Origin: Escherichia phage 4A7
Strand: one strand, 5' to 3'
Sequence record: NC_049946.1
Length of the DNA stretch: 49,168 nucleotides
Positions within the stretch are counted from its first letter, which is position 1. Each line of letters opens with the position of its first letter. This document shows positions 7,104-49,168 of the stretch, in pieces. Below the pieces are notes generated by a model. That model saw only the letters and a program-made list of their open reading frames with translations, did not search any database and had not been told where the DNA came from. The position numbers and the translations under genes were made by a program.

Positions 7104-7132
7104 CGGGGGCGAAATGCCCCCGTGTCTTTTTT
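7104..7132 (+). terminator. putative intrinsic terminator/attenuator after the major capsid gene
   Basis: 7-bp GC stem CGGGGGC/GCCCCCG with loop GAAAT, followed by TGTCTTTTTTCAC, 9 nt after the E stop codon. Confidence 0.4.
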
Positions 7133-7146
7133 CACAGGGGGCTGAT

Positions 7147-7867: not shown

Positions 7868-7878
7868 AAGGGGGATGT

Positions 7879-8849: not shown

Positions 8850-8856
8850 GGACGAT

Positions 8857-9597: not shown

Positions 9598-9612
9598 TCC
9601 GGAGAGTCAGCG

Positions 9613-14029: not shown

Positions 14030-14034
14030 ATCCC

Positions 14035-15347: not shown

Positions 15348-15365
15348 TGCAAAATGTTTTATGTG

Positions 15366-15392
15366 AAACCGCCTGCGGGCGGTTTTGTCGTT
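15366..15392 (+). terminator. putative intrinsic terminator/attenuator between I and J
   Basis: Stem ACCGCC/GGCGGT with loop TGCG, followed by TTTTGTCGTTT; lies between the I stop (15347) and the J start (15408). Confidence 0.35.
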
Positions 15393-15407
15393 TATGGAGC
15401 GTGAGGA

Positions 15408-21300: not shown

Positions 21301-21647
21301 TCTCACTCCCATCAGGTACCCGTATCTGGCTCGTTGCCGGCGTTACCGATATGCGTAAATCCTTCAACGGACTGGGAGAACAGGTACAACATGTGCTGAA
21401 TGATAATCCCTTCTCCGGTCACCTGTTTATCTTCCGTGGCCGACGGGGTGACACCGTCAAAATTCTTTGGGCTGATGCTGATGGTCTGTGCCTGTTCACC
21501 AAACGCCTGGAGGAAGGCCAGTTTATCTGGCCTGCGGTACGTGACGGCAAGGTATCCATTACCCGCTCGCAACTGGCAATGCTCCTCGATAAGCTGGACT
21601 GGCGTCAGCCAAAAACATCCAGCCGTAACTCACTGACAATGTTGTAA
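21297..21647 (+). CDS. tnpB: IS66-family Orf2 (TnpB)
   Basis: 116-aa ORF overlapping tnpA (ATGA), typical of IS66 orf2. Confidence 0.8.
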   Translation: MISLPSGTRIWLVAGVTDMRKSFNGLGEQVQHVLNDNPFSGHLFIFRGRRGDTVKILWADADGLCLFTKRLEEGQFIWPAVRDGKVSITRSQLAMLLDKLDWRQPKTSSRNSLTML

Positions 21648-21677
21648 AAAACTCCTGACCGCATTATAAAAACGGTC

Positions 21678-23291
21678 ATGAGTCAGAAATACCTCATTCG
21701 CATCGCAGAGCTGGAAAGGTTGCTCTCTGAGCAGGCTGAAGCCCTCCGTCAGAAAGACCAGCAACTGAGTCTGGTTGAAGAGACGGAAGCCTTCCTGCGC
21801 TCTGCACTGACACGTGCCGAAGAAAAGATCGAAGAAGATGAACGGGAAATAGAACATCTGCGGGCTCAGATAGAAAAACTGCGCCGGATGCTGTTCGGTA
21901 CCCGTTCTGAAAAACTGCGTCGTGAAGTTGAACTGGCTGAGGCTCTGCTGAAACAACGTGAACAGGACAGCGATCGTTACAGTGGGCGGGAAGACGATCC
22001 TCAGGTTCCCCGCCAGTTGCGACAGTCGCGCCATCGTCGTCCGTTACCGGCACACCTTCCCCGTGAAATACACCGCCTGGAGCCAGAAGAAAGCTGTTGC
22101 CCGGAGTGTGGCGGTGAGCTGGATTATCTGGGGGAAGTCAGCGCTGAACAGCTGGAACTGGTGAGCAGTGCCCTGAAAGTGATCCGCACAGAACGGGTAA
22201 AAAAAGCCTGTACAAAATGTGACTGTATTGTTGAAGCACCGGCGCCGTCCCGCCCGATAGAGCGTGGTATCGCGGGCCCCGGATTACTTGCCCGCGTGTT
22301 AACGGGAAAATACTGCGAACATCTGCCACTGTATCGTCAGAGTGAAATCTTTGCCCGCCAGGGTGTCGAACTGAGCCGGGCCTTACTCTCCAACTGGGTT
22401 GACGCGTGCTGCCAGTTAATGACACCGGTGAATGATGCCCTGTACCGTTATGTAATGAATACCCGCAAGGTTCACACTGATGACACACCGGTAAAGGTAC
22501 TGGCACCGGGTCAGAAAAAGGCGAAAACAGGGCGTATCTGGACGTATGTCCGGGATGATCGCAATGTGGGTTCGTCATCTCCTCCAGCGGTCTGGTTCGC
22601 GTACTCGCCGAACCGGCAGGGGAAACACCCGGAGCAACACCTCCGCCCCTTCCGGGGTATCCTGCAGGCGGATGCGTTCACAGGTTACGACAGGTTGTTC
22701 AGTGCAGAACGTGAAGGTGGTGCACTGACAGAAGTTGCGTGCTGGGCCCATGCCCGGCGAAAAATCCACGATGTATACATCAGCAGCAAAAGTGCGACGG
22801 CAGAAGAAGCCCTGAAGCGAATCAGTGAACTGTACGCCATCGAGGATGAAATACGGGGATTACCGGAGTCAGAGCGTCTTGCCGTCAGGCAGCAGCGAAG
22901 CAAAGTGTTACTGACGTCGCTGCATGAATGGATGGTGGAGAAGAATGGTACGCTGTCGAAAAAATCCAGACTGGGCGAAGCGTTCAGCTATGTACTGAAT
23001 CAGTGGGATGCCCTCTGTTATTACAGTGATGACGGTCTGGCGGAGGCGGATAATAATGCTGCGGAAAGAGCGCTTCGTGCAGTCTGTCTCGGAAAGAAAA
23101 ACTTTATGTTCTTTGGCAGCGATCACGGCGGCGAGCGTGGAGCACTGTTGTACGGGCTGATCGGCACCTGCCGTCTGAACGGTATCGATCCGGAAGCGTA
23201 TCTGCGCCATATCCTGAGCGTACTGCCGGAATGGCCTTCCAACCGAGTTGACGAACTCCTGCCATGGAACGTAGTACTCACCAATAAATAA
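21678..23291 (+). CDS. tnpC: IS66-family transposase (TnpC)
   Basis: 537 aa with an N-terminal coiled coil/leucine zipper, a CxxC...CxxC zinc motif and a DDE-type core; position and size typical of IS66 TnpC. Confidence 0.85.
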   Translation: MSQKYLIRIAELERLLSEQAEALRQKDQQLSLVEETEAFLRSALTRAEEKIEEDEREIEHLRAQIEKLRRMLFGTRSEKLRREVELAEALLKQREQDSDRYSGREDDPQVPRQLRQSRHRRPLPAHLPREIHRLEPEESCCPECGGELDYLGEVSAEQLELVSSALKVIRTERVKKACTKCDCIVEAPAPSRPIERGIAGPGLLARVLTGKYCEHLPLYRQSEIFARQGVELSRALLSNWVDACCQLMTPVNDALYRYVMNTRKVHTDDTPVKVLAPGQKKAKTGRIWTYVRDDRNVGSSSPPAVWFAYSPNRQGKHPEQHLRPFRGILQADAFTGYDRLFSAEREGGALTEVACWAHARRKIHDVYISSKSATAEEALKRISELYAIEDEIRGLPESERLAVRQQRSKVLLTSLHEWMVEKNGTLSKKSRLGEAFSYVLNQWDALCYYSDDGLAEADNNAAERALRAVCLGKKNFMFFGSDHGGERGALLYGLIGTCRLNGIDPEAYLRHILSVLPEWPSNRVDELLPWNVVLTNK

Positions 23292-24134: not shown

Positions 24135-24992
24135 CTAATTGGGTGATAACAGATCCTGTGTATGGGAGTTTCCCTTTTTGCGTGCGTTGATGCTGGTAAC
24201 GGCAAACGTCATGATGAACAAAACCGCGAATAAGACGACAATCGTCGGAGCTGGTGCGCTGTCGATAAAAAAGGACAACCAGACACCAGTCATTGACACT
24301 ATTACCGATATGCCAGTCGCCAGTAGGAGCGCAATATGAAAGCGTTGTGTCAGGAGTACCGCAATGGCGCCAGGCGCAATGAGCAGAGAAATGGAGAGAA
24401 TGATACCTACCGCTTTCAGCGTCGCCACAATGGTCAGAGAGACCATGCACAGCAGCCCATAATGCAGCCATCTCGTATGCAAACCGCTTACCTGCGCCTG
24501 TTGATAATCAAAGCTGAACAGCAAAAAATCCCGCCATTTTACGCTAATAACAAGTGTAACCAGCCCGGCAATAATCATCGTCTGGATTATATCGCCGATG
24601 GTTATCCCGAGCATGTCGCCGAAAAGAATATGGTCAAGATGTACGTCTGGTTTGACTGCAATATACAAGATCAGACCTGCGGCAAACATGCCAGAAAAAA
24701 CAATCCCCATCACTGTATCTTGCTTGATTCGGCTGTTGTCTTTCAGGTATCCCGTCGCCACCGCGCAGAATACTCCGGCGACGAATGCCCCTGTAGCCAA
24801 AGGTAACCCCAGAATCCAGGCAAGCACGATGCCAGGAAAAACCGCATGACTCATCGCGTCACCCATCAGTGCCCAACCTTTCAGGACCAGAAAGACCGAC
24901 AGCAGCGCACAGGGTATGGAAACTACCAGTGAAATCAGCAGTGCGTGACTCATAAAGGTGAACTGCAGTGGCTCCAGTAATAATGCCATCAT
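24135..24992 (-). CDS. sitD: Mn/Fe ABC transporter permease SitD
   Basis: 285-aa polytopic membrane protein, last gene of the sitABCD-type operon, overlapping sitC. Confidence 0.85.
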   Translation of the reverse strand: MMALLLEPLQFTFMSHALLISLVVSIPCALLSVFLVLKGWALMGDAMSHAVFPGIVLAWILGLPLATGAFVAGVFCAVATGYLKDNSRIKQDTVMGIVFSGMFAAGLILYIAVKPDVHLDHILFGDMLGITIGDIIQTMIIAGLVTLVISVKWRDFLLFSFDYQQAQVSGLHTRWLHYGLLCMVSLTIVATLKAVGIILSISLLIAPGAIAVLLTQRFHIALLLATGISVIVSMTGVWLSFFIDSAPAPTIVVLFAVLFIMTFAVTSINARKKGNSHTQDLLSPN

Positions 24993-25846
24993 GAGCGATC
25001 CTCCAGCGCCTTATGCGCACGCCGACGATTTGCCAAAAGCCCATGGGTGGGCGCAAAGACAAATGCTAAAAGAAACAGCAGTGTCTGCGCCACCACGATG
25101 ATTCCACCTGTCGCGCCGTCCAGAAAGTAACTGACCCACGCGCCGAGGAAACTGGTTACACTGCCAATAGTTACAGCAATCATGAGCAGGCGGGGAAAAC
25201 GATCGGTTAACAACCATGCTGTTGCACCGGGAGTCACCACCAGACAGATCACCAGAAAGGCACCAACCGTTTGCAGCGCCGCAACGGTCGAAACCGACAG
25301 CAGGGTGAAGAAGAGGAGTTTTAATCTGCCCGGATGCAATCCAATAGCACGGGCGTGATTCTCGTCGAAAAAGGTCACCATAAGATCTTTCCATTTGAAA
25401 AAAAGCACGATGATCGAGAGAATGCCAATGATAGTGAGTTGCAGGATATCCGCCGGATCGATTGCCAGAATATTGCCCAGGACGATGGTCTGAATGTTCA
25501 CAGATGTCGGGTTCAATGACACCATAAACAGCCCCAGGCCAAAAAAGGACGAGAAGATCAGACCGATGATGGCATCTTCTTTTAAGCGGGTGCGTTGGTT
25601 AAGAAACAGCATGCTGCCCGCAGCCAGTCCGCCGGAAAAGAAGGCTCCCAGAGAAAACGGAAGCCCCAGCATATATGCCCCCGCAACACCCGGGACAATA
25701 GAGTGCGACAACGCATCGCCAATCAGCGACCAGCCTTTTAGCATCAGATAGCATGACAGGAAAGCGCAGAGACCGCCGACCATCGCCGAGACCCACATCG
25801 CATTGAGCATATATTCATAGCTGAAGGGTTCCAGTAGCACGTTCAT
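24989..25846 (-). CDS. sitC: Mn/Fe ABC transporter permease SitC
   Basis: 285-aa polytopic membrane protein, paralogous to sitD; overlaps sitB. Confidence 0.85.
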
Positions 25847-26670
25847 CTTTCTTCCCTCTGCACCGCTGACGGTCGATGAGCCACAAAAGGGCGTTCATCG
25901 TCAGTAATAATGCTTTCTTCCGAGCCGTTAAGTGTGACATGGCGCAGTACGCCGCTAAAAGCCAGCTCTAGGTTCTCGGCTGTAAAAGTGGTGTCTGTCG
26001 GCCCGCTTGCCAGGACGGTGCCTTTGACCATGACCGTATAATCGCAAAATGTCGTGACGGATCCGAGATTGTGTGTTGAGACAAGCATCGTTTTGCCTTC
26101 CGCGCGTAACTCCCTCAACAGGCTGATGATTTTGGCTTCGGTTTTCACATCAACGCCAGTAAAAGGTTCATCCAGCAGGATCACATCACCCTGCTGTGCA
26201 ATCGCTCTCGCCAGAAAGACGCGTTTCTTTTGTCCACCGGAAAGCTCGCCGATTTGTCGATGGCGAAAATTCACCATATCGACACGTTCCAGCGCATCGG
26301 TGACAATTTGACGATCCCTCTTTTTGGCGATACGCAACATACCCATATGCCCATAGCGGCCCATCATCACCACATCTTCCACCAGTACAGGAAATGACCA
26401 GTCAACCTCTTCTGACTGAGGGACGTAGGCAACCAGGTTTTTCTGTAACGCCTGTCGCGTGGGAATACCCAGAACAGATATCTTTCCGCTGGTCAGACGC
26501 ACAAATCCCATAATCGCTTTAAACAACGTCGATTTTCCGGAACCGTTTACCCCAACCAGAGCGGCAATAGATCCACTTGGTACTGTGAAGGATGCATCGC
26601 GCAGTGCTGTGTGCCCGTTATGCCAGGTGACAGCAACATCATTAACGACAATGCCTGCAGATTGCATCAT
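25843..26670 (-). CDS. sitB: Mn/Fe ABC transporter ATP-binding protein SitB
   Basis: Walker [13 protein letters not shown] signature LSGGQKKR, Walker B ILLDEP. Confidence 0.9.
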
Positions 26671-27584
26671 TATTTCTCCCTTTTCCCGGCTTTAATTCCC
26701 TGTACCAGCGTACTGGTAGTAACCTTAAGAAGGTCGATATACGTCGGTACCGGGCCGTTTTCTGTGCTCAGGGAATCGACATAGAGCACACCGCCGTAGT
26801 GTGCGCCGGTTTCACGCGCAACCTGACGCGCTGGTTTATCGGAAATCGTACTCTCGCTAAAGACTGCCGGGATATGATTTTTCTTAACTATATCAACAAC
26901 CTTACGTACCTGCTGCGGTGTTCCTTGTTGATCGGCATTAATCGGCCACAGATAAAGCTCTTTTAGCCCCAAATCGCGTGCGAGATAAGAAAAAGCCCCT
27001 TCACTGGTGACCATCCATCGCTGATTCTCAGGGAGTTCCGTAATCTGCTTACGCAGGGGGGCAAGGGTTTGGGTAATCTTGGCTTTATAAGTATCGGCAT
27101 TGCGTTGGTAGGTTTGTGCATTTGCCGGATCGTATTTTATCAACGCATCACGAATATTATCGACGTAAATCAGAGCATTATCTGGCGACATCCATGCATG
27201 GGGGTTAGGTTTGCCCTCATAGGGTCCTTCGGTGATCCCTACAGGCGTCACACCCGAAGAGACAATTACTTCTGGAACCCCATTGAGATGCTGGTAAAAG
27301 CGTTGGAACCACAATTCCAGATTCATACCATTGGCGAGAATCAGTTGTGCCCCCTGCGCACGTTTAATATCGCCAGGGGTAGGCTGATACTCATGAATTT
27401 CTGCACCAGGCTTGGTTATGGATGAGACTTCTGCAGCATCTCCCGCCACGTTTTTGGCCATATCCGCGATGATGGTAAATGTTGTAATGACCTTAAATTT
27501 TTCAGTTGCACTTGCCTGAAATGCGATCGAGCAGGTGAGTGCGAGGCCCCCCAAGAGCATGGTTACTTTTTTTATTGAGCGCAT
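26670..27584 (-). CDS. sitA: periplasmic Mn/Fe-binding protein SitA
   Basis: 304 aa with signal peptide; cluster-9 (MntC/YfeA/SitA-type) solute-binding protein; first gene of the operon. Confidence 0.9.
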
Positions 27585-28499: not shown

Positions 28500-28664
28500 C
28501 TGCTGCGCCATATGGGTTGGACTGAAGCGGCTGACCTGATTGTTAAAGGTATGGAAGGCGCAATCAACGCCAAGACCGTAACCTATGACTTCGAACGTCT
28601 GATGGAAGGCGCTAAACTGCTGAAATGTTCAGAGTTTGGTGATGCGATCATCAAGAATATGTAA
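28500..28664 (+). other. icd: phage-borne 3' end of icd (isocitrate dehydrogenase), the core of attP
   Basis: In-frame translation [54 protein letters not shown] matches the Icd C-terminus as recalled. e14 and phage 21 integrate into icd and carry a replacement 3' end. Confidence 0.85.
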
Positions 28665-28687
28665 TCACTACATGTGTTAAATATTGA

Positions 28688-28715
28688 AACGGGCGTATAA
28701 CACGCCCGTTGTTTT
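28688..28715 (+). terminator. intrinsic terminator after the icd 3' end
   Basis: Stem AACGGGCG/CGCCCGTT with loop TATAACA, followed by GTTTT. Confidence 0.7.
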
Positions 28716-28730
28716 ATGATGATGTAAAAT

Positions 28731-28777: not shown

Positions 28778-29920
28778 CTATGCTGTTTTGATATCTACGA
28801 TAATCCAGTCTTTACCACGATCATCATTGTATCGGTCGGTCATTTTTCTGGATTTATGGCCTAACAACTTTTGCGTATCCAGACCCTGTTCCCGATATAA
28901 CCGTTCTGACAGAGATCGCTGCTCATGAAATGTGGGCGCAGTTCCTTGCTCCCATTTTATGCCACATTTTTCCCTGGCCTTTTTAAAAGCCGTTGTCAGA
29001 GTATTCGCAGAAACCTGGTCTCCTCTGTTTGCTTGAGAGGTTGTGTGACGGTAATGGACCAGATATTTACTAACAACAGCATCCCTGCACTGAGATATAA
29101 CTTCACGAAGGGTAATATTCAGAGCATCGCATTTCAGGTTAAGCGGAATAGCAAGTTTTGAACCGGTTTTTTCCTGAGTAATGTGCAACATGTCGTCCCA
29201 GATATCAGAGAATTTCAAATTGCAGATATCGCCTAAACGTTGTCCAGTGACAAGAGCAAGTAGCATCCCGCATTTTAAATAGGGCTGCCGTCTGCTTACG
29301 CTGTCAAATATTGCCTGCCATTCGGGCAGTGATAATCTTTGGCGGTTTACTCGATTTCGCGGTTGTTTTGTTGCCTGCGCTGGGTTAAATCCTGGCGGAA
29401 CATGTCCTGCGTGTTGTGCTTCTTTGAAGACGTCGATTAACACCATTCTCACGACTTGCGCCATCCTGTTATGACCTTCAGCCTTTACAGCATCAATTAT
29501 TTCGGCAATATCAAGTGCGGTAATATCCTTGAGGTGTTGCATTCCACAATGCTCACGGAAAAGACGAATGGGTTTGCCTTTTTGCCGATAGGAGTTGGGT
29601 CTTAGTTCATTATGTTGCAGCCTGTCCTCCTGGATAGAAATATATTTATCAAGCCATTCTGTCACCGTAATGTCTGAGCGCCTGCCTTTCATTCTTTCCA
29701 GACGCTCATTGACGCTTAATATTTGTCGGGTACGTTGTTCAGCAATAATGGTATTTGCTTCAGTAGCAACTTGTTTTGCTTCATTCTCATCAGTTCCTAA
29801 GCTATGAAAACGACCGGATAGTGGATGTTTGTATTGCCAATATACCTTTCCGGTTCGCTTATCTAATTTGCAATATAAATTGGGTATAGAGATTTTGTGA
29901 GATCGGGGTCTAGCAGCCAT
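28778..29920 (-). CDS. int: tyrosine integrase (lambda Int family, phage 21 / e14 IntE-like)
   Basis: 380 aa with a C-terminal catalytic domain (R...HxxR...Y, LLGHKSRKMTDRY); adjacent to the icd-containing attP and overlapped by xis. Confidence 0.9.
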   Translation of the reverse strand: MAARPRSHKISIPNLYCKLDKRTGKVYWQYKHPLSGRFHSLGTDENEAKQVATEANTIIAEQRTRQILSVNERLERMKGRRSDITVTEWLDKYISIQEDRLQHNELRPNSYRQKGKPIRLFREHCGMQHLKDITALDIAEIIDAVKAEGHNRMAQVVRMVLIDVFKEAQHAGHVPPGFNPAQATKQPRNRVNRQRLSLPEWQAIFDSVSRRQPYLKCGMLLALVTGQRLGDICNLKFSDIWDDMLHITQEKTGSKLAIPLNLKCDALNITLREVISQCRDAVVSKYLVHYRHTTSQANRGDQVSANTLTTAFKKAREKCGIKWEQGTAPTFHEQRSLSERLYREQGLDTQKLLGHKSRKMTDRYNDDRGKDWIIVDIKTA

Positions 29921-38160: not shown

Positions 38161-38858
38161 AAAACATCGCCGCACAGATGGTTAACTTTGACCGTGAGCA
38201 GATGCGCCGGATCGCCAACAACATGCCGGAACAGTACGACGAAAAGCCGCAGGTACAGCAGGTAGCGCAGATCATCAACGGTGTGTTCAGCCAGTTACTG
38301 GCAACTTTCCCGGCGAGTCTGGCTAACCGTGACCAGAACGAACTGAACGAAATCCGCCGCCAGTGGGTTCTGGCTTTCCGGGAAAACGGGATCACCACAA
38401 TGGAACAGGTTAACGCAGGAATGCGCGTAGCCCGTCGGCAGAATCGACCATTTCTGCCATCACCCGGGCAGTTTGTTGCATGGTGCCGGGAAGAAGCATC
38501 CGTTATCGCCGGACTGCCAAACGTCAGCGAGCTGGTTGATATGGTTTACGAGTATTGCCGGAAGCGAGGCCTGTATCCGGATGCGGAGTCTTATCCGTGG
38601 AAATCAAACGCGCACTACTGGCTGGTTACCAACCTGTATCAGAACATGCGGGCCAATGCGCTTACTGATGCGGAATTACGCCGTAAGGCCGCAGATGAGC
38701 TTGTCCATATGACTGCGAGAATTAACCGTGGTGAGGCGATCCCTGAACCAGTAAAACAACTTCCTGTCATGGGCGGTAGACCTCTAAATCGTGCACAGGC
38801 TCTGGCGAAGATCGCAGAAATCAAAGCTAAGTTCGGACTGAAAGGAGCAAGTGTATGA
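38157..38858 (+). CDS. P: replication protein P (DnaB helicase loader)
   Basis: 233 aa, near-identical to lambda P as recalled (MKNIAAQMVNFDREQMRRIANNMPEQYDEKPQVQQVAQIINGVFSQLLATFPASLANRDQNE...). Confidence 0.95.
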   Translation: MKNIAAQMVNFDREQMRRIANNMPEQYDEKPQVQQVAQIINGVFSQLLATFPASLANRDQNELNEIRRQWVLAFRENGITTMEQVNAGMRVARRQNRPFLPSPGQFVAWCREEASVIAGLPNVSELVDMVYEYCRKRGLYPDAESYPWKSNAHYWLVTNLYQNMRANALTDAELRRKAADELVHMTARINRGEAIPEPVKQLPVMGGRPLNRAQALAKIAEIKAKFGLKGASV

Positions 38859-39157
38859 CGGGCAAAGAGGCAATTATTCATTACCTGGGGACGCATAAGA
38901 GCTTCTGTGCACAGGACGTTGCCGCGGTAACAGGCGCAACCGTAACCAGCATAAATCAGGCTGTGGCTAAAATGGCGCGGGCAGGAATCCTGGTCGTTGA
39001 TGGTAAGGTCTGGCGAACGGTGTATTATCGGTTCGCTACCAGAGAAGAACGGGAAGGAAAGGTGAGCGCGAATTTGATTTTTAAGGAGTGTCGCCAGAGT
39101 GCCGCGATGAAACGGGTATTGAGGGTATATAAAAGAACATCAATGGGTACACAATGA
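38855..39157 (+). CDS. ren: Ren
   Basis: Matches lambda Ren as recalled (MTGKEAIIHYLGTHKSFCAQDVAAVTGATVTSINQA...). Confidence 0.9.
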   Translation: MTGKEAIIHYLGTHKSFCAQDVAAVTGATVTSINQAVAKMARAGILVVDGKVWRTVYYRFATREEREGKVSANLIFKECRQSAAMKRVLRVYKRTSMGTQ

Positions 39158-39224
39158 TGAAACAGGTGAGTTGAGTTCAAACTGTAGTACAATTCTCTCC
39201 AGTTTGAACAGGAAAGAATATGCT

Positions 39225-39557
39225 ATGAACCCTTATATTTATCTTGGTGGTGCAATACTTGCAGAGGTCATTGGTACAACCTTAATGAAGTTTTCAGAAG
39301 GTTTTACACGGTTATGGCCATCTGTTGGTACAATTATTTGTTATTGTGCATCATTCTGGTTATTAGCTCAGACGCTGGCTTATATACCTACAGGGATTGC
39401 TTATGCTATCTGGTCAGGAGTCGGTATTGTCCTGATTAGCTTACTATCATGGGGATTTTTCGGCCAACGGTTGGACCTGCCAGCCATTATAGGCATGATG
39501 TTGATTTGTGCCGGTGTGTTGGTTATTAATTTATTGTCACGAAGCACACCACATTAA
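39225..39557 (+). CDS. emrE: small multidrug resistance efflux transporter EmrE
   Basis: 110 aa, matches E. coli EmrE as recalled (MNPYIYLGGAILAEVIGTTLMKFSEGFTRLWPSVGTIICYCASFWLLAQTLAYIPTGIAYAIWSGVGIVLISLLSWGFFGQRLDLPAIIGMMLICAGVL...); emrE is DLP12-associated in K-12. Confidence 0.9.
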   Translation: MNPYIYLGGAILAEVIGTTLMKFSEGFTRLWPSVGTIICYCASFWLLAQTLAYIPTGIAYAIWSGVGIVLISLLSWGFFGQRLDLPAIIGMMLICAGVLVINLLSRSTPH

Positions 39558-39566
39558 AAATAATTT
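39552..39566. repeat. 15-bp direct repeat CATTAAAAATAATTT, left copy (overlaps the emrE stop)
   Basis: Identical 15-mer recurs at 41625-41639; the two copies bracket the ybcK segment. Confidence 0.5.
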
Positions 39567-39812
39567 ATTTTTAAACGACTAAAATATGGAGGTTCGTATA
39601 TTTGTATGGGCCTCGTTTTATGCTTTTTGTTAATGTCTTTAGTTTTTATTCATTCTTTTGATCTTTCAAGACCATGGTGTAAGAAAATTGCAATACGATT
39701 ATTGTTGTATATTCAAGATAATGTGACCTTAATTGTCTTTTTAAATAAAAATTAAACAAAAATCATATCTCACCACTAAGGTTTATAAAAGCATACTTTA
39801 GCAGGTGTCACC

Positions 39813-41339
39813 ATGAAAAAAGCCATAGCATATATGCGATTTTCATCACCAGGTCAGATGTCTGGTGATTCATTAAACCGCCAGAGAAGGCTTATTACTG
39901 AATGGCTAAAGGTAAATAGTGATTATTACCTTGATACCGTAACGTATGAAGATTTGGGGTTAAGCGCATTCAATGGAAAGCATGCACAATCAGGAGCTTT
40001 TTCGGAATTTTTAGATGCTATAGAACATGGTTACATATTGCCAGGGACTACATTGTTAGTTGAAAGTCTGGACAGACTTTCAAGAGAAAAAGTCGGTGAA
40101 GCGATTGAGCGTCTGAAATTGATTTTGAATCACGGTATTGATGTTATAACTCTTTGCGATAATACAGTCTATAATATAGACTCATTGAATGAGCCATATT
40201 CATTAATAAAAGCCATACTTATAGCACAAAGGGCAAATGAAGAAAGCGAGATAAAGTCAAGTCGGGTTAAATTATCATGGAAGAAAAAACGGCAGGATGC
40301 ACTGGAATCAGGCACGATTATGACGGCGTCTTGTCCGAGATGGCTCTCATTGGATGACAAAAGAACAGCTTTTATTCCAGACCCCGACAGGGTGAAAACG
40401 ATTGAGCTAATTTTTAAACTCAGGATGGAAAGGCGATCATTGAATGCAATAGCTAAGTATTTAAATGATCATGCTGTAAAAAATTTTTCAGGAAAAGAAA
40501 GTGCATGGGGGCCTTCTGTAATTGAAAAATTATTAGCGAATAAAGCTCTGATAGGTATATGCGTACCTTCATATCGTGCAAGAGGGAAAGGGATAAGTGA
40601 AATCGCTGGCTATTATCCCAGAGTCATATCAGATGATTTGTTTTACGCTGTACAGGAAATTCGGTTGGCACCTTTTGGTATTAGCAATAGTAGCAAGAAT
40701 CCTATGCTAATAAATCTACTTCGAACAGTTATGAAGTGTGAGGCTTGTGGTAATACCATGATTGTTCATGCGGTATCTGGACGTTTGCATGGCTATTATG
40801 TTTGTCCGATGAGAAGATTACATCGATGTGACAGGCCATCAATAAAAAGAGATTTGGTTGATTATAATATCATTAATGAATTGCTTTTTAATTGTAGCAA
40901 AATTCAACCAGTTGAAAACAAGAAAGATGCTAATGAAACTTTAGAGTTAAAAATTATTGAGCTTCAGATGAAAATTAATAATTTAATCGTTGCATTGTCT
41001 GTCGCGCCTGAAGTTACCGCTATAGCAGAGAAAATAAGACTATTAGATAAGGAATTACGAAGGGCTTCGGTATCATTAAAAACTTTGAAGAGTAAAGGGG
41101 TGAGTTCACTTGGTGATTTTCATGCTATTGATTTAACCAGTAAAAATGGGCGAGAGCTATGTCGTACACTTGCCTATAAAATATTCGAAAAAATTATAAT
41201 TAATACAGATAATAAAACCTGTGATATCTATTTTATGAATGGCATTGTTTTTAAACACTATCCTTTAATGAAAGTAATATCCGCCCAGCAGGCGATAAGT
41301 ACTCTTAAATATATGGTTGATGGTGAGGTTTATTTTTGA
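39813..41339 (+). CDS. ybcK: large serine recombinase (YbcK-like)
   Basis: 508 aa; N-terminal resolvase/invertase catalytic domain (AIAYMRFSSPGQ...SLNRQ), central recombinase domain, Cys-rich zinc ribbon (CEACGN...CPMRRLHRC) and C-terminal coiled coil; AT-rich. Confidence 0.85.
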   Translation: MKKAIAYMRFSSPGQMSGDSLNRQRRLITEWLKVNSDYYLDTVTYEDLGLSAFNGKHAQSGAFSEFLDAIEHGYILPGTTLLVESLDRLSREKVGEAIERLKLILNHGIDVITLCDNTVYNIDSLNEPYSLIKAILIAQRANEESEIKSSRVKLSWKKKRQDALESGTIMTASCPRWLSLDDKRTAFIPDPDRVKTIELIFKLRMERRSLNAIAKYLNDHAVKNFSGKESAWGPSVIEKLLANKALIGICVPSYRARGKGISEIAGYYPRVISDDLFYAVQEIRLAPFGISNSSKNPMLINLLRTVMKCEACGNTMIVHAVSGRLHGYYVCPMRRLHRCDRPSIKRDLVDYNIINELLFNCSKIQPVENKKDANETLELKIIELQMKINNLIVALSVAPEVTAIAEKIRLLDKELRRASVSLKTLKSKGVSSLGDFHAIDLTSKNGRELCRTLAYKIFEKIIINTDNKTCDIYFMNGIVFKHYPLMKVISAQQAISTLKYMVDGEVYF

Positions 41340-41624
41340 GTAATAATCACTTTTTCAACCGTGCTATGGTATGAAAGTAAAGTAACTAATATGATATTAA
41401 CTATCTTGAACGAAGCGCCCTGAGCTATAGTTTTACTATAGGCACTGTCACTGGATGTTGGCATTCTTGCTCTAGTAGCTCAACAATACCCAATCACAAA
41501 ACAATTCACTGATAACAAACTTTGTGCACGTGCTTGGTTATGGCGAACAGGTGATGTTAACCTCTTGCCAGAATGCCACTCCACTTCATTAAGTATCTGA
41601 GCACCGAGAGGCTGGTCACGCCCC

Positions 41625-41639
41625 CATTAAAAATAATTT
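41625..41639. repeat. 15-bp direct repeat CATTAAAAATAATTT, right copy
   Basis: Perfect match to 39552-39566. Confidence 0.5.
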
Positions 41640-41663
41640 CTTTTGAATCGAGTGAAATAGGTT

Positions 41664-41690
41664 AGCCCGCATAAGTGCGGGCTGCTTTTT
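41664..41690 (+). terminator. intrinsic terminator between convergent ybcK-side and esterase genes
   Basis: Stem AGCCCGC/GCGGGCT with loop ATAAG, followed by GCTTTTT. Confidence 0.55.
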
Positions 41691-42732
41691 ACAGGTCAGC
41701 GTTTGTTTTTTGTTGTTGGGTAGCGGTTTTTATGGGGGTTCCCAGGTTTTTAGTAAACCACTCAACAACTCTGTTTATAATAATTGGCTGATACCATGTA
41801 TTATCGCCATGCTCGGCCCCTTCTACCAGCACGTACTCAGCGTTATCACCGTTCTTCTTCAACATCCTGAATAGTTTGGCGCTTTGCTCAGGTGAAACCA
41901 GAGTGTCTTTGCTACCATGCATAATAAGAAATGGGGGTTTTACTCCTTTCATATGTCCGATTGGACTGGCGTTTAGCGCTTTTTCTTTTGACGCTGTGAT
42001 GGGGGCTCCCGCAAAATTTCTGAATGCAGGGCCATTGATCATTAAGGCTTCGGTTACGGCAGGAGAGCGATGAACCTCCTGCACTGATTCAGGGAACCCC
42101 TCGCCAATATTCAACAAGTCAGAAATCCCATAAAGTGTGGCAACTGCCTGAACATCTGAGGATTGCTGAAGAAAGTCACCTTTATCAAAGGTTTTGTCAC
42201 CATTTGTAGTTCCCATCATCTGGGCAAGCCATCCACCGGCAGAGTCACCCAGAACTCCGATTCTTTGAGGATCAATCCCATAATTGCTGGCATGCTCTCT
42301 CAGGTAACGTATTGCAGCTTTTCCATCCTCAACTGGTGCTGGAAATGTATCAGGAATTGTTCTGTATTCTACAGCGGCCACAACAAAACCAGCTTCTGCC
42401 AGAGCCATTCTCATTTCAATAAATTTGTCATGTTCAGAAGACATGAATCCGCCGCCGGGATAATAAATAATGGCTGGTTTTAAATCATTTGTTCGCGGGA
42501 CAAGAACTGACATGTGAAGCTGTCTGACAGAACGAGTTCCTTTTATCTGGGAATAAACAACATCACCAATGAGATCGACCTGGTTTCTGGTCGGTGAAAC
42601 ACTAATGATATCTGCACCCGGGGTGTAACCAGGAAGATTAGTCTGGACAGGTGTTGCACAACTCCCGACCGACATGGCCATTGACATACCATACAATAGT
42701 GTTGCAGATGATAATATCTTGTTAATTTTCAT
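41689..42732 (-). CDS. alpha/beta-hydrolase fold esterase/lipase, probable lipoprotein
   Basis: 347 aa; signal peptide with lipobox-like VGSC; HSL-family motifs YYPGGGF and GDSAGG (nucleophile elbow GxSxG); C-terminal His. Confidence 0.7.
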   Translation of the reverse strand: MKINKILSSATLLYGMSMAMSVGSCATPVQTNLPGYTPGADIISVSPTRNQVDLIGDVVYSQIKGTRSVRQLHMSVLVPRTNDLKPAIIYYPGGGFMSSEHDKFIEMRMALAEAGFVVAAVEYRTIPDTFPAPVEDGKAAIRYLREHASNYGIDPQRIGVLGDSAGGWLAQMMGTTNGDKTFDKGDFLQQSSDVQAVATLYGISDLLNIGEGFPESVQEVHRSPAVTEALMINGPAFRNFAGAPITASKEKALNASPIGHMKGVKPPFLIMHGSKDTLVSPEQSAKLFRMLKKNGDNAEYVLVEGAEHGDNTWYQPIIINRVVEWFTKNLGTPIKTATQQQKTNADL

Positions 42733-43179
42733 GTTTTACATGCCTTGACTTATCGGATGAAATTCTCTTACTGAATTTAACGGCAGTTTAATAGCCGTAC
42801 AACTCGTGGTAGCCAGGGAAATATCCCAGTCGTGGTTAAGGTTGTACTTGACGGCTATTATTTCAACAATGCTTAAAGTGAGAGCTTAAGGTTATGCGTA
42901 TGTTTTACAGTCCGAGTAGATTCTGACCAATAGCTTCTTTGTATAATTCTGTCAGAAATAAATCTTGGCTTGCATGAAGTTTGAGACCTTATCTTGTTTG
43001 ATTATGAATAATCAATTCGCCATAATTGTATCACCGGAGCCTGAACAACTCCGGTGACTTCTGCGCTAAACGGGGACGTTTATGCGCACACACAATCCAA
43101 ACTCTCTTCTCCCTTCACAGATGCAGAAATGCACCTGCGTTTTTTTGCATCCAGCGTCTGACCTCTGTGGAGGTGAAGC

Positions 43180-43635
43180 GTGAACCTACCACAAGATGGC
43201 ATCAAACTGCATCGCGGTAACTTCATCGCTATCGGCCAGCAGATCCAGCCTTATCTGGAGGACGGAAAATGCTTTCGCATGGTGCTTAAACCGTGGCGTG
43301 AGAAACGCAGTCTTTCCCAGAATGCACTCAGCCATATGTGGTACAGCGAAATCAGTGAATACCTCATCAGCAGGGGGAAATCGTTCGCTACCGCAGCATG
43401 GGTAAAAGATGCTCTCAAACACACATACCTCGGTTATGAAACCAAGGACCTGGTTGATGTCGTAACCGGCGAAATCACTACTATCCAGTCGTTACGCCAT
43501 ACCTCCGATCTTGATACCGGAGAGATGTATGTCTTCCTGTGTAAGGTTGAAGCCTGGGCGATGAATATTGGCTGCCACCTGACTATTCCGCAGAGCTGCG
43601 AGTTCCAGCTGCTGCGCGACAAGCAGGAGGCGTAA
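43180..43635 (+). CDS. ybcN: YbcN-like nin-region protein
   Basis: 151 aa, matches DLP12 YbcN as recalled ([15 protein letters not shown]...). GTG start follows a GGAGG RBS. Confidence 0.75.
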
Positions 43636-43805
43636 TGGCTACACCGCTTATTCGTGTCATGAACGGACACATCTACAAAGTACCAAATCGTCGTAAGCGT
43701 AAACCTGAGCTGAAGCCATCCGAAATACCAACACTGCTCGGGTATACCGCCAGCCTGGTTGATAAAAAATGGTTGCGACTGGCAGCAAGGAGGAATCATG
43801 GCTGA
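43635..43805 (+). CDS. ninE: NinE-like small protein
   Basis: 56-aa basic ORF ([27 protein letters not shown]...), not in the supplied ORF track; coupled by overlaps to ybcN (TAATG) and ybcO. Confidence 0.55.
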   Translation: MATPLIRVMNGHIYKVPNRRKRKPELKPSEIPTLLGYTASLVDKKWLRLAARRNHG

Positions 43806-44088
43806 TTTGAGAAAAGCAGCGCGTGGTCGGGAATGCCAGGTAAGAATCCCTGGCGTATGTAATGGCAATCCTGAAACGTCAGTACTGGCACATATCCGGC
43901 TGGCTGGATTGTGCTGTACCGGTATCAAACCGCCAGACCTGATTGCCACCATTGCATGTTCTGCCTGCCACGACGAAATCGACCGTCGCACGCATTTTGT
44001 TGACGCTGGATATGCAAAAGAATGCGCGCTGGAAGGTATGGCGAGAACACAGGTTATCTGGTTGAAAGAGGGGGTTATTGAGGCGTGA
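43798..44088 (+). CDS. ybcO: YbcO-like protein (DUF1364-type nin gene, Cys-rich)
   Basis: From [28 protein letters not shown] onward it matches DLP12 YbcO as recalled; ATG at 43798 is internal to the listed ORF. Confidence 0.8.
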
Positions 44089-44447
44089 ATACCTACAGCA
44101 TCACATTACCCTGGCCGCCGAGCAATAATCGCTATTACCGCCATAATCGCGGACGCACGCATATCAGCGCAGAGGGGCAGGCATACCGCGATAATGTCGC
44201 CCGAATCATTAAAAACGCAATGCTGGATATCGGCCTGGCTATTCCTGTGAAAATCAGCATTGAGTGCCACATGCCGGATCGCCGTCGCCGTGACCTTGAT
44301 AATCTGCAAAAGGCCGCTTTTGACGCACTCACCAAAGCAGGTTTCTGGCTGGATGATGCTCAGGTCGTTGATTACCGCGTTGTGAAGATGCCCGTTACCA
44401 AAGGTGGGAAGCTGGAGCTGACTATCACTGAACTGGGAGATGAATGA
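44085..44447 (+). CDS. rusA: Holliday junction resolvase RusA
   Basis: 120 aa, matches E. coli RusA as recalled ([26 protein letters not shown]...[25 protein letters not shown]). Confidence 0.9.
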
Positions 44448-44584
44448 TGTTTGAGTCTTATATGGCAGAGCGTCTTCGCCGCCGCTGGGTGCGCCTGCGC
44501 TTATATCGTTTTCCTGGTTCTGTTTTGACCGATTACCGAATACTGAAGAATTACGCCAAAACCCTGACAGGAGCAGGAGTATGA
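44444..44584 (+). CDS. ylcG: YlcG-like small protein
   Basis: 46-aa ORF overlapping the rusA stop (ATGATG), in the DLP12 position between rusA and Q; not in the ORF track. Confidence 0.5.
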
Positions 44585-44669
44585 AGTCAGAGATAACAAT
44601 CAACTAATACTGTTTTGTTGATTTTTGCTTGTAATTGGCGTTCTGGTCTGATTTTTGTGGAGTAAGTTG

Positions 44670-45053
44670 ATGCGTGATATTCAGATGGTTCTTGAGCGTT
44701 GGGGAGCGTGGGCGGCTAATAATCATGAAGATGTGACCTGGTCGTCCGTTGCCGCCGGTTTTAAGGGATTAATTCCTTCAAAAGTAAAATCTCGCCCGCA
44801 ATGTTGTGACGATGACGCGATGATCATTTGCGGGTGCATGGCCCGTCTGAAAAAGAACAACAGCGATTTACACGATTTATTAGTAGATTATTATGTATGT
44901 GGTATGACATTCATGTCACTGGCAAGTAAGCATTGCTGCTCGGATGGTTATATCGGGAAAAGGTTACAGAAGGCTGAGGGCATAATTGAAGGGATGTTAA
45001 TGGCATTAGATATCCGGTTAGATATGGATATCGTTGCTAATAATTCTAATTGA
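44670..45053 (+). CDS. Q: late-gene antiterminator Q (phage 82 / DLP12 QuuD type)
   Basis: From [24 protein letters not shown] onward it matches QuuD as recalled; Cys-rich zinc site ([12 protein letters not shown]). Confidence 0.85.
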
Positions 45054-45190
45054 TATGCAATTGTTTACTAAAAGTTATTAAAAATGGGGCGTGGAAACGC
45101 CCCCAAAATAAAGGGTAATATATAACAGAAGGTTTATATAGTAAGAAGCAAGGTAGTGCTTCTAAAGGAAGTGGCTTGAGGGCTCCACTT

Positions 45191-45230
45191 ATATGTTGCG
45201 GAGGCAAAGCCTCCCGCAACATATCTTTTT
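45191..45230 (+). terminator. strong intrinsic terminator ~140 nt downstream of Q (tR' candidate)
   Basis: ~15-bp stem ATATGTTGCGGAGGC/GCCTCCCGCAACATAT with loop AAA, followed by CTTTTT; the spacing from Q fits the lambdoid pR'-6S RNA-tR' arrangement. Confidence 0.6.
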
Positions 45231-45241
45231 CGTAAGTCAGA

Positions 45242-46324
45242 TTAGAACTGATAAACCAGACCTACAGCGACGATGTCGTCGGTATCAATACCAGCTGTTT
45301 TGGTAAACTTACTATCGTCAATTAAGTTGATTTTGTAATCAACAAAAGTGGACATGTTTTTATTAAAGTAGTAAGTAGCACCGACATCGACATACTTGAC
45401 TAAGTCTCGGTCACCATGAACACCAAGGTCTTTACCTTTTGACTGAAGGTAAGCAACAGATGGTCGCAGACCGAAGTCAAACTGATATTGTGCTACTGCT
45501 TCAAAGTTTTGTGCTTTGTTTGCAATATGGTTATTACCAAAAACGGTCATATTCTGAGTTTCAGAATATGTGGTAGCCAGATAGATATTGTTCGCATCAT
45601 ATTTCAGGCCTGCAGCCCATACTTCCGCATTTTTGCCGGAGGCATTGAATTTGCTCTTACCATAGGCGACCTGACCGTCAGTGCGATCTGATTTAGCATA
45701 GGTTGCACCCACGCCGAATCCTTCATACTCATAAGTAGTGGAGAAACCGAAACCATCACCATTGACTTCAGTTACGTCAGTGCGGTCATTTTTACCCTGA
45801 TACTGAGCAGCAAAGTTCAGGCCATCGACCAGACCAAAGAAGTCGTTGTTACGATAAGTTGCAACACCAGTAGTGCGACCAGTCATGAACACATCTGTTT
45901 GGGTCCAGGTATCACCACCGAATTCTGGCAGGACGTCAGTCCACGCACCGATGTCGTATGCTACACCGTAGTTACGGCCGTAATCGATTGAGCCGTAATC
46001 ACCAAATTTCAGGCCTGCAAATGCAAGACGGGTTTTGTCTTTGGAAGAACCTTGAGATTCAGCACGGTTGCCTTTGAATTCATATTCCCACTGACCGAAA
46101 CCAGTCAGTTGATCGTTGATTTGGGTTTCACCTTTGAAGCCAAGACGGGCATAAGTAGTATCACCATCATCTGCATCATTAGAGGAGAAGTAGTGCTTGG
46201 CATTAACTTTCCCGTATAGATCCAGCTTGTTACTGTCTTTATTATAAATTTCAGCTGCCTGAGCAGACATCGCCATCAGTACTGATGCAGCTACAGCAGA
46301 AATTGCCACTGTTAATTTTTTCAT
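45242..46324 (-). CDS. nmpC: OmpC/OmpF-family general porin (NmpC / Lc-like phage porin)
   Basis: 360 aa; signal peptide [23 protein letters not shown], porin motifs ([35 protein letters not shown]) and a C-terminal Phe. Confidence 0.9.
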
Positions 46325-46751
46325 TGTACGCCCTTTTTTTTGAACTATTATTAAAAAATGATGTCACTGCGCGATAAATATTCATCTAATCAATGCGATT
46401 ATTTCAAGATGTAAGTTTTAGTTTCTCATTTAATTTGTGAAGTAGATCTCTATTTTTATCTGAACCTTTTCTATCTAATCCTATTCATGGCTCTTGTTTG
46501 AACGAAAATAAATCTATTAGCTAATTTATATTAATGGCACTTATTTATAAGCGCTCTATAATTCTTTAGCTTAATTTAAACAAACTAAAAATAACATCGG
46601 AAATTATTCATTGGTTATTTGTTGAAGTTTTCTTATGTATTTGTGGTGGTGTTTTGAACACTCGGTGGCATTCTCACAAATATCATTTAGTAGTTTACGT
46701 ACGTAAAAAATTGGTTATGCTGTTAAGAGTGGTTACTTCGTCACACAGCTT

Positions 46752-46784
46752 AAACCCGCCGTCGAGCGGGTTTTTCCATTTTTT
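46752..46784 (+). terminator. intrinsic terminator upstream of the lysis cassette
   Basis: Stem AACCCGC/GCGGGTT with loop CGTCGA, followed by TTTCCATTTTTT. Confidence 0.5.
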
Positions 46785-46913
46785 GAGTCTCGATATTAGC
46801 TGATAACCCAATACCTGAGTTATTCACTGACTCCGAATCTGTTACGTTTCTGCCTTTATTGCGATACGTAGTATCCCCTTAATTTACACCCGCTTTGTCT
46901 GCGAGGTGGGGTT

Positions 46914-47129
46914 ATGAAATCCATGGATAAGTTAACAACGGGTGTCGCCTATGGCACCTCAGCAGGTAGTGCCGGGTACTGGTTTTTACAGTTGCTCGAT
47001 AAAGTCACGCCCTCACAGTGGGCGGCAATAGGTGTGCTGGGTAGTCTGGTATTTGGCTTGCTGACGTATCTGACAAACCTTTATTTCAAGATTAAAGAAG
47101 ATAAGCGTAAGGCTGCGAGAGGTGAATAA
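46914..47129 (+). CDS. S: class II holin / pinholin (phage 21 S-like, dual start Met1/Met4)
   Basis: 71 aa, matches S21 as recalled (MKSMDK...[17 protein letters not shown]...[11 protein letters not shown]...[11 protein letters not shown]...RKAARGE). Confidence 0.9.
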
Positions 47130-47626
47130 TGTCGCCATCATTACGCAAGGCTATTGCTGCTGCTATTGGTGGTGGGGCTGTTGCCATAGCGTCTGTGCTC
47201 ATCACTGGTCCGAGTGGTGACGATGGCCTGGAAGGTGTCAGCTACATACCATACAAAGATATCGTTGGCGTATGGACTGTATGTCACGGACACACCGGAA
47301 AAGACATCATGCTCGGTAAAACGTATACCGAAGCAGAATGCAAAGCCCTCCTGAATAAAGACCTTGCCACTGTCGCCAGACAAATTAACCCGTACATCAA
47401 AGTCGATATACCGGAAACAACGCGCGGCGCTCTTTACTCGTTCGTTTACAACGTGGGCGCTGGCAATTTCAGAACATCGACGCTTCTTCGCAAAATAAAC
47501 CAGGGCGATATCAAAGGCGCATGTGATCAGCTACGGCGCTGGACATACGCTGGCGGTAAGCAATGGAAAGGGCTGATGACTCGCCGTGAGATTGAGCGTG
47601 AAGTCTGTTTGTGGGGGCAACAATGA
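47129..47626 (+). CDS. R: SAR endolysin (T4-lysozyme-like muramidase, R21 type)
   Basis: N-terminal signal-anchor-release segment ([18 protein letters not shown]); lysozyme motifs (EG...YIPYKD..G.WT.C.GHTG); follows the pinholin. Confidence 0.9.
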
Positions 47627-48066
47627 GCAGAGTAACCGCGATTATCTCCGCTCTGGTTATCTGCATCATCGTCTGCCTGTCATGGGCTGTTAATCATTAC
47701 CGTGATAACGCCATCGCCTACAAAGAGCAGCGCGACAAAGCCGCATCTACTATCGCTGACATGCAGAAGCGTCAACGTGATGTAGCAGAACTCGACGCCA
47801 GATACACAAAGGAGCTTGCTGATGCTAACGCGACTATCGAAAGTCTACGTGCTGATGTTTTTGCTGGTCGTAAGTGGCTGCGCGTCAAAGCAGTCTGTCC
47901 GGACATGCATAAAACCACCGCCGCCTCCGGCGTGGATGATGGTGCCAGCCCCAGACTTACTGACACCGCTCAACGGGATTATTTCGTTCTCAGAGAGCGC
48001 ATCGAAACCGTAACTAACCAATTGAATGGTCTGCAAGAGTATGTGAGATCACAGTGTTCATATTAG
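47623..48066 (+). CDS. Rz: i-spanin Rz
   Basis: From [31 protein letters not shown] onward it resembles lambda Rz as recalled; ATGA overlap with R. Confidence 0.85.
47816..48013 (+). CDS. Rz1: o-spanin Rz1 (lipoprotein, embedded in Rz in the +1 frame)
   Basis: Lipobox LVVSGC, then a proline-rich segment ([15 protein letters not shown]...TPLNGII) as in lambda Rz1; lies entirely within Rz. Confidence 0.7.
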
Positions 48067-48104: not shown

Positions 48105-48479
48105 ATGTCTCAATACGCTCAAGCCGCTTTAAATGCTTATCAATTGGTTGCTCATAACTCAATGTCTCCTCGTGATGCATGGGAGGCTGCTGTCGCTGAG
48201 GTTACAGAAAGCGAATCGGCAAGAAAGAAGGGATGCCCAAGGGCAACGTTTCTCGCTCTGGCGGATAGCGGTTATCTGAAGAATGTAAAACAACATCATG
48301 GGGAGAAAAAGATCGGTAAGTTGTACCAAAGGGCAATTGAAGTTGCGAATCTGATTCTTGATTTACCCGGAATTAGCAAAGCTGAGCTAGTTGATAAAAC
48401 TTGCTATAAAGACAGGCAAGGGTCTTATGACATTGCTCTAACTCTCGCTCAGCACGGATTACTCCAGCGTCCTCAATAA
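48105..48479 (+). CDS. hypothetical protein in the bor-equivalent position
   Basis: ORF downstream of Rz followed by a terminator; ATG at 48105 (the listed ORF starts at a GTG inside Rz at 48054); no recognised homologue. Confidence 0.4.
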   Translation: MSQYAQAALNAYQLVAHNSMSPRDAWEAAVAEVTESESARKKGCPRATFLALADSGYLKNVKQHHGEKKIGKLYQRAIEVANLILDLPGISKAELVDKTCYKDRQGSYDIALTLAQHGLLQRPQ

Positions 48480-48497
48480 GATATTAAGTGATTTATG

Positions 48498-48521
48498 GCC
48501 TCGCTTTTAGCGGGGCTTTTT
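48498..48521 (+). terminator. intrinsic terminator after the bor-position ORF
   Basis: Stem GCCTCGC/GCGGGGC (one G-U pair) with loop TTTTA, followed by TTTTT. Confidence 0.45.
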
Positions 48522-48882
48522 CATATCTGAATCTCACCATGCATATCATCACCTGACTGGAACGTCAGGAGAATTCGTTACCGGGATTCGATAAAGGTAT
48601 TCAAGCCTGACACATTATGCGCTGTATCGTCGCCGTATTCCTGCATTAACCATGACCGTAGCCCGACGGGGAATTCCTTCTGCGCGAGTGTGCGGGAATA
48701 ATCAAAAACGATGCACACCGGGTTTTTACCGCGTTTATTATTCGCGGGTTTGTCCCTCATGCTCGCCAGTCCTGTGCGGGGGTGGAAGAAACAGGACGTG
48801 TATTCAGGTCTGTCAGATATTGAATTCATTGCGAATAAACCAGAACGCCTGCGGGTCCTTTCCGGCGATCCGACAGGTTACG

Positions 48883-48894
48883 GGGCGGCGACCT
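48883..48894 (+). other. cosN, the 12-nt cohesive-end sequence (lambda type); cosB extends to about 49070
   Basis: ...GATCCGACAGGTTACG|GGGCGGCGACCTCGCGG... matches the junction of the lambda right and left ends as recalled; located ~175 bp upstream of the nu1 start. Confidence 0.8.
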
Positions 48895-49070
48895 CGCGGT
48901 TTTTCACTATTTATGAAAATTTTTCAGGGAAAATCGTGTCGGTACTTCTCGAATATAACTTTTTGTTTTTTTTAATATTGCATTCGTAAAGGTCCGACAT
49001 GAAAGTGTCCGAAAATGCCTTTTTCTGGCGTTTTCATGTCGGGCCTTGTATTTGATAATGGGTTGTTTTC

Positions 49071-49168
49071 ATGAAGGTTAATAAAAAGAGGCTTGCCGAA
49101 ATTTTCAACGTGGACCCGCGGACGATTGAACGCTGGCAGTCTCAGGGACTCCCTTGCGCCTCCAAAGG
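49071..49168 (+). CDS. nu1: terminase small subunit Nu1, N-terminal part (continues in frame at window position 1)
   Basis: [33 protein letters not shown] matches the lambda Nu1 N-terminus as recalled (MEVNKKQLADIFGASIRTIQNWQEQGMP...); the frame is continuous across the end-to-start junction. Confidence 0.85.

Follow-up and report, generated by a model that had tools for sequence, protein, structure and literature searches.

The stretch of DNA analyzed here, referred to as the window, is the whole 49,168-nt record NC_049946.1 of Escherichia phage 4A7, and all coordinates refer to it. With a probability of roughly 95%, sequence comparison identifies the window as the chromosome of a temperate lambdoid coliphage, complete at 49,168 bp, presented as an arbitrarily opened circle and carrying a packaging site (cos) of the phage 21 type, from which virion DNA with unique cohesive ends is predicted to be made. 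The type of cos is already known from phage 21, and the phage itself has already been deposited three times.

The cohesive-end site and the terminase genes

The lambda cohesive-end sequence, GGGCGGCGACCT, is unique in the window. A search of both strands found a single exact copy, at 48883-48894 on the plus strand, as compared to ~0.006 copies expected by chance (49 kb, both strands), and the same position was still the sole site when up to one mismatch was allowed, against an average of 0.24 in shuffled sequences. Directly 5' of this sequence, positions 48867-48882 read GATCCGACAGGTTACG, a 16-mer identical to the final 16 nt of lambda (NC_001416) and different from phage 21 at one base. The 28-mer formed by the two together would be expected by chance in only ~1e-12 copies (49 kb, both strands). 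An earlier note on this DNA had reported the cohesive-end sequence at this position, preceded by the bases of the lambda right end, and both elements lie exactly where it placed them. Two-fold symmetry is present at 10 of the 16 positions of cosN, and nicks are predicted between 48882 and 48883 on the top strand and between 48894 and 48895 on the bottom strand, which would leave 12-nt 5' overhangs. A second copy of ACAGGTTACG was found at 22680, followed by ACAGGTTG, within an IS66-family transposase gene. It has no cos context, was rejected as a cos candidate and is taken to be a chance occurrence.

The subsites that flank cosN were assigned by transferring the annotations of two phage 21 records, OL657228 and M81255, and are collected in Table 1 with the other principal features. 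All of the annotated phage 21 subsites (R4/cosQ, I2, R3, I1, R2, R1, I0, and the ribosome-binding site) are base-for-base the same in the window. The packaging-termination signal, cosQ (PMC4669245), sits within a box annotated as R4 in M81255 (48852-48863). To the other side of cosN lies a complex cosB with three R boxes, one of them inverted, and an IHF site in the interval between R3 and R2. Of the 16 box positions, R2 has 15 in common with R1, and R3 has 11. The inverted repeat formed by R2 and R1 was also found de novo, with arms at 48989-49015 and 49021-49047 that are 81% complementary.

A Nu1-family gene lies directly 3' of cos and overlaps a gene of the gpA family. As the earlier note had proposed, the last 98 bases of the window encode the N-terminus of the Nu1-family protein and read in frame into position 1: the open reading frame runs from an ATG at 49071, through 32 codons and 2 bases, across the end of the record to a stop at 449-451, for a total of 182 residues. 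The protein matches the Pfam family Phage_Nu1 (E = 1.9e-81) and is 100% identical to gp1 of OL657228. The note's spacing of about 175 bp between cos and this gene was likewise accurate, with 176 bp separating 48894 from the ATG, or 188 nt when counted from the nick, the same nick-to-ATG distance as in phage 21. The large terminase matches both GpA_ATPase (E = 8.8e-57) and GpA_nuclease (E = 6.1e-71) in Pfam.

Table 1. Positions in the window of the packaging site and its putative subsites, the terminase genes, the attachment region, and the gene upstream of cos.
Feature	Position	Strand	Basis or remark
Whole packaging site (cos)	48853-49048		order cosQ, cosN, I2, R3, I1, R2 (inverted), R1
cosQ heptamer GGGTCCT	48853-48859	+	sequence and distance to nick as annotated in OL657228 (42902-42908 of 42931)
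cosN	48881-48896	no strand	12-nt cohesive end 48883-48894 plus 2 bp on each side; same as lambda and 21 cosN
I2, putative IHF-type site adjoining cosN	48912-48926	+	same as I2 in M81255; assigned by identity
R3 (AATCGTGTCGGTACTT), predicted small-terminase binding box	48932-48947	+	same as 21 R3 in OL657228 (nt 50-65) and M81255
I1, putative IHF bending site, R3-R2 interval	48956-48968	-	reverse complement AAACAAAAAGTTA; same as I1 in OL657228 (nt 74-86)
R2, opposite orientation to R3 and R1	48989-49004	-	reverse complement TTTCATGTCGGACCTT; same as 21 R2
R1 (TTTCATGTCGGGCCTTG)	49032-49048	+	same as 21 R1
I0	49054-49068		same as phage 21
Ribosome-binding site GGGT	49060-49063		same as phage 21
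Small terminase (21 gp1, Nu1 family), first 98 nt	49071-49168	+	translation; 100% identical to 21 gp1
Small terminase, in-frame remainder from 49168	1-451	+	TAA stop 449-451
Large terminase (21 gp2, lambda gpA family), ATPase and endonuclease domains	423-2351	+	Pfam matches
attP region	28501-28717	+	holds copy of icd 3' end; stretch at both SE15 prophage ends
DUF6979 gene	48105-48479		upstream of cos

Specificity of the packaging site

The match to phage 21 was obtained by a megablast search of 48600-49168 against phage records. Two of these, OL657228, which is the whole phage 21 genome in linear form, and X02501, a phage 21 record titled "left end sequence with genes 1 and 2", start exactly at window position 48883, with 99.7% identity over 286 nt. 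Compared with the phage 21 right and left ends placed together, the window forms one gapless block from 48852 through 49168 and on to 914, with four mismatches (48865, 48872, 48984, and 572), none of which falls within an annotated subsite. Within the spacer between cosQ and cosN, the base is that of lambda at 48865 and 48872 and that of 21 at 48866, while 48984, in the interval between I1 and R2, differs from 21. The likeness extends beyond the packaging genes, with the left arm through the tail genes being ~97.6% identical to phage 21 over 89% of the first 24.9 kb.

Lambda has the same 12-nt cohesive ends, the same cosQ, the same final 16 nt at its right end, and the same cosB layout of R3, I1, inverted R2, and R1, and its terminases are likewise of the Nu1 and gpA families. 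A lambda-specific cos, in which the site and terminase work as they do in lambda itself, nevertheless appears very unlikely. It would fit the cosQ-cosN core, which is identical to lambda at 41 of 42 positions and to 21 at 40 of 42, and the 16 nt 5' of the nick, which are those of the lambda right end. Across cosB, however, the window is identical to 21 at 153 of 154 positions and to lambda at only 100 of 156 (64%). The R boxes are of the TTTCATGTCGG type, as in 21, and differ from those of lambda, and the small terminase is that of 21, with an N-terminal DNA-binding region clearly unlike that of lambda Nu1. Common cosQ and cosN sequences do not make the two systems interchangeable: lambda and 21 have both in common, but in packaging each prefers its own DNA to that of the other by a factor of more than 1000 (PMC4669245). 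This discrimination has been traced by Feiss and colleagues to differing R boxes and to the recognition helix of the small terminase (PMC4669245, PMC9026076). Because the R boxes and gp1 of the window match those of 21, and lambda and 21 differ precisely there, the cos and terminase would be expected to have the specificity of phage 21 rather than that of lambda, a discrimination that we infer from identity with 21. The earlier description of a lambda cohesive end upstream of nu1 thus fits cosQ and cosN, which are common to lambda, but not cosB and the terminase, which are of the 21 type; the gene it called nu1 is gene 1 of phage 21.

An intact attachment site and the prophage form

The same sequence is present as a prophage in the chromosome of E. 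coli SE15. Local BLAST showed that this prophage follows the window from 28501 to 49168, continues from 1 to 15761, is interrupted by an insertion of ISEc12, and resumes at 15757 to end at 28717. The junction between the end and the start of the window is seamless at chromosome positions 1161607/1161608. On its two sides the prophage is flanked by the icd gene and by a displaced icd 3' fragment, so that the whole window is present once between attL and attR. The SE15 prophage restores the icd reading frame, with the original 3' fragment having been moved to attR. Phage 21 and e14 presumably integrate in icd in the same way. The prophage has the stretch 28501-28717 at each of its ends, and the window therefore carries the joined attP. 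An integrase gene is located nearby, at 28778-29920 on the minus strand.

That attP is intact shows the window to be the excised, circular form. The alternative, in which the window represents part of an integrated and possibly defective prophage, its circularity coincidental and its cos an internal relic, is highly improbable. Prophages with this sequence are indeed common among E. coli chromosomes, and the SE15 copy has ISEc12 inserted in gene J. The window, however, contains no host flanks, joins the two prophage ends in an intact attP, and has an intact J. Its ends are contiguous in phage 21, in the phage records 3W and 1W described below, and in SE15, and the near-identical phage 4C10 gives plaques.

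A complete genome deposited as an opened circle

Three further deposits, 3W (OM475430), 1W (OM475428), and Lambda_4C10 (LR595861), all of the genus Bievrevirus, represent the same phage as the window, with 1, 2, and 2 mismatches, respectively, over 49,168 bp. Walked around the circular window, 3W shows one mismatch in 49,277 nt and a 109-nt self-overlap, and 1W shows two mismatches and a 129-nt overlap followed by junk sequence, while Lambda_4C10 shows two mismatches over one full unit. Each of the three walks therefore gives a unit of 49,168 bp. The records are opened at different places, 3W at window position 49115, 1W at 49108, and 4C10 at 48886, which is within cosN; the openings of 1W and 3W lie 54-61 nt upstream of that of the window, in the same small-terminase gene. 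All three records annotate the large terminase as terminase A.

The sole difference between the window and 3W is a synonymous change at 6351, in codon Gly95 (GGG versus GGT) of the major capsid gene: the window has G, and T is present in 1W, 3W, 4C10, and the SE15 prophage. Searches by accession or by name for papers on phages 1W, 3W, and D2 found none, and a paper on urinary coliphages cites a sister accession only.

Several of these GenBank entries contain end artifacts. In addition to the circular overlaps of 109 nt in 3W and 129 nt in 1W, positions 49298-49662 of 1W (OM475428.1) consist of P5 adapter followed by ~330 nt of poly-G/N, and positions 49169-49207 of 4C10 (LR595861.1) are a Nextera read-through adapter of 38-39 nt.

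A 1200-nt query spanning the end-start junction was 100% identical and uninterrupted in all 20 of the E. coli chromosomes listed, and 287 of the 5,426 complete E. coli genomes contained at least 80% of it at a single location. The gene map contains a full lambdoid set, comprising the terminase, portal, protease/scaffold, D, E, FI, FII, Z to J, and stf genes, followed by int/xis, exo/bet/gam, cI/cro/cII, O/P, the nin genes, Q, and S/R/Rz. For bv_4C10 (LR595861), the prophage has been reported to be inducible, with the resulting particles forming plaques on E. coli C (bioRxiv 10.64898/2026.05.26.727859). The window is thus read as a complete genome in circular form because its ends are contiguous, SE15 holds a copy, the gene set is full, attP is present, and 4C10 forms plaques. 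The proposal that the record is a complete assembly opened inside nu1 is borne out by the contiguity of the ends in phage 21, in 3W and 1W, and in E. coli chromosomes, and by the full gene set and attP. The opening point, 98 nt into the small-terminase gene, is arbitrary.

It is extremely unlikely that the closure is an assembly artifact and that the actual genome length differs from 49,168 bp. Although obvious artifacts are present at the ends of the relatives' deposits in the form of adapter, poly-G, and terminal overlaps, 3W, 1W, and 4C10 all come to 49,168 once overlaps and adapter are removed, and, apart from one insertion sequence, the content of the SE15 prophage between attL and attR is precisely this unit.

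Predicted virion ends and packaging mechanism

The left end of the virion DNA is predicted at 48883 and the right end at 48882. This prediction rests first on the experimentally defined left end of phage 21. The 4C10 assembly, which is linear, points indirectly to the same place. LR595861 begins at window position 48886 (CGGCGACCT...) and ends in ...ACAGGTTACGGGG (48885/6), directly followed by CTGTCTCTTATACACATCTGACGCTGCCGACGA; its break, between 48885 and 48886, is located 3 nt into the cohesive-end sequence, and there is no terminal redundancy. The sequence CTGTCTCTTATACACATCTGACGCTGCCGACGA, which we take to be Nextera read-through adapter, is absent from both strands of the window.

In the study that produced 4C10, the assemblies of two further lambda-like phages are also broken within the cohesive-end sequence, at ragged positions. 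When positions are numbered from the cohesive end, Lambda_2B8 starts at nt 8 and has its end at nt 6-7, and Lambda_ev087 (LR597644.1) starts at nt 14 and ends in the same ...GTTACGGGG as 4C10, directly after which its last 19 nt are Nextera read-through adapter. The methods of that study (PMC6969025) describe clipping of only the other form of the adapter, removal of end repeats, and a choice of nt 1 guided by reference genomes; the paper states no terminus analysis for 4C10. Even with nt 1 reference-set, a native break of the contigs at cos is suggested by their ragged starts and by the adapter that survived. Such a break is expected because the ends of the linear DNA have only 12 nt in common, and it is consistent with the predicted left end. 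A model of symmetric Tn5 insertion with a 9-bp stagger on 12-nt overhangs fits the left start of 4C10 (48886, 9 nt before 48895) but fails at its right end, where 48891 is predicted and 48885/6 is observed; therefore, only the breakage of the contig within cosN is used here, and not the exact positions.

The mechanism of packaging is drawn from the lambda/21 paradigm (PMC4669245, PMC9026076), with the identity of the components established here by sequence. Anchored and positioned on cos, gp2 would nick the two strands at the positions predicted above. The terminase would then keep hold of the left end, which bears cosB, dock on the portal, and translocate rightwards through 49,168 bp until the next cos, where cosQ and cosN would direct the terminating cut. 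The resulting virion DNA would be a unique, non-permuted linear molecule that begins with 5'-GGGCGGCGACCT at 48883 and ends with ACAGGTTACG-3' at 48882. After injection, the 12-nt 5' overhangs would anneal to give the circle as it appears in the window. The term circular permutation, which the earlier note applied to the window, is accordingly apt for the record but not for virion DNA, which should have unique ends.

Headful (pac) packaging, with truly permuted and terminally redundant virion DNA and an unused cos-like motif, is extremely unlikely. The 1W and 3W assemblies close as circles across cos, as permuted genomes also assemble, but such closure is also expected from annealed ends or concatemers. 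The large terminase is a member of the lambda gpA family, the small terminase is that of the cos phage 21, the full set of cosQ, cosN, and cosB is conserved base for base, and 4C10 was assembled as a linear contig whose two ends lie within cosN.

Surroundings of cos and mosaic structure

Leftward from cos, homology to both 21 and lambda stops at 48852, and everything to the left of this edge in the window is unrelated to 21. Upstream of 48852 are the DUF6979 gene, a hairpin, and a segment that yielded no family match. The hairpin, located at 48497-48517 on the plus strand, the strand of the late transcript, is strong and terminator-like, with 9 pairs followed by a T-run, and lies in the interval between the DUF6979 gene and cos. 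Late transcription would need to read through it to reach the terminase genes, presumably by Q antitermination.

Two open reading frames on the plus strand, 48711-48989 and 48652-48975, cross cosQ, cosN, R3, and I1, and are annotated as hypothetical proteins in 1W, 3W, and the RefSeq entry for SE15. The sole family match of the first, to phrog_11159, is limited to the part encoded by the DNA of cosQ and cosN. The open reading frames across cos are probably spurious gene calls maintained by conservation of the DNA. A family search with a third open reading frame, 48578-48829 on the minus strand, gave no match. Both 48711-48989 and 48578-48829 were considered as parts of the packaging system and were rejected, the former since it matches through cos DNA only and the latter for want of any match.

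The right arm of the window resembles DLP12, the cryptic prophage of E. coli K-12. From ren to Rz (window 38547-47997) the two are 88-97% identical, and the DLP12-like genes in the window include ren, emrE, the serine recombinase gene ybcK, ybcN, ninE, ybcO, rusA, ylcG, quuD, and essD/rrrD/Rz. A porin gene similar to ompC/nmpC, also part of this DLP12-like region, lies between Q and the holin gene and is uninterrupted in the window. The late and nin region of the window looks like an intact relative of the DLP12 region. Whereas DLP12 is defective and located at argU, the window phage is complete and integrates in icd. The cos of DLP12 was rejected as the same site, since its cosB is of the lambda type; its Nu1 homolog is nohD, and only 74 bp at cos (48850-48923) are common to the two.

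It is possible, although we rate it at somewhat less than an even chance, that cos itself is a recombination joint, at which a packaging, head, and tail arm of the 21 type was joined to a DLP12-like right arm within the cosQ-cosN core. This suggestion is made because the edge of homology to 21 falls at cosQ, the spacer bases are a mixture of lambda and 21, and only 48850-48923 is common with DLP12. The phage 21 genome is 42,931 bp long, and the window, with head genes of the 21 type, is 14.5% longer; the unit length of 4C10, which forms plaques, is likewise 49,168 bp. If the joint is real, it would mean that this longer chromosome is carried in 21-type heads, as an instance of known lambdoid mosaicism and not of a new mechanism.

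Two pieces of additional cargo were observed in the left part of the window. An IS66-family element of three genes (tnpA, tnpB, and an ISEc23-type transposase gene) occupies ~20875-23291 on the plus strand, just 3' of the side tail fiber gene, and the phage that bears it is apparently still viable. A search for inverted repeats bounding the element (seed 10, length 18) found none. The ~11% of the left 24.9 kb that is unmatched in phage 21 may include this element. Between the tail region and attP, at 24135-27584 on the minus strand, lies a complete sitABCD operon for an iron/manganese ABC transporter; sitABCD is also documented in the 21-type relatives ev017 and ev207.

Significance

The cos of phage 21 is a classical site that has been dissected experimentally, and the value of the present assignment lies mainly in record-keeping. 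It would fix the origin of the chromosome, with nucleotide 1 of the virion predicted to correspond to window position 48883 and the right end to 48882, and it flags the gene calls that span cos as probably spurious. Beyond the record itself, specificity of the 21 type would determine which helper phages, cosmids, or cos-bearing islands (PICIs) this phage could package.
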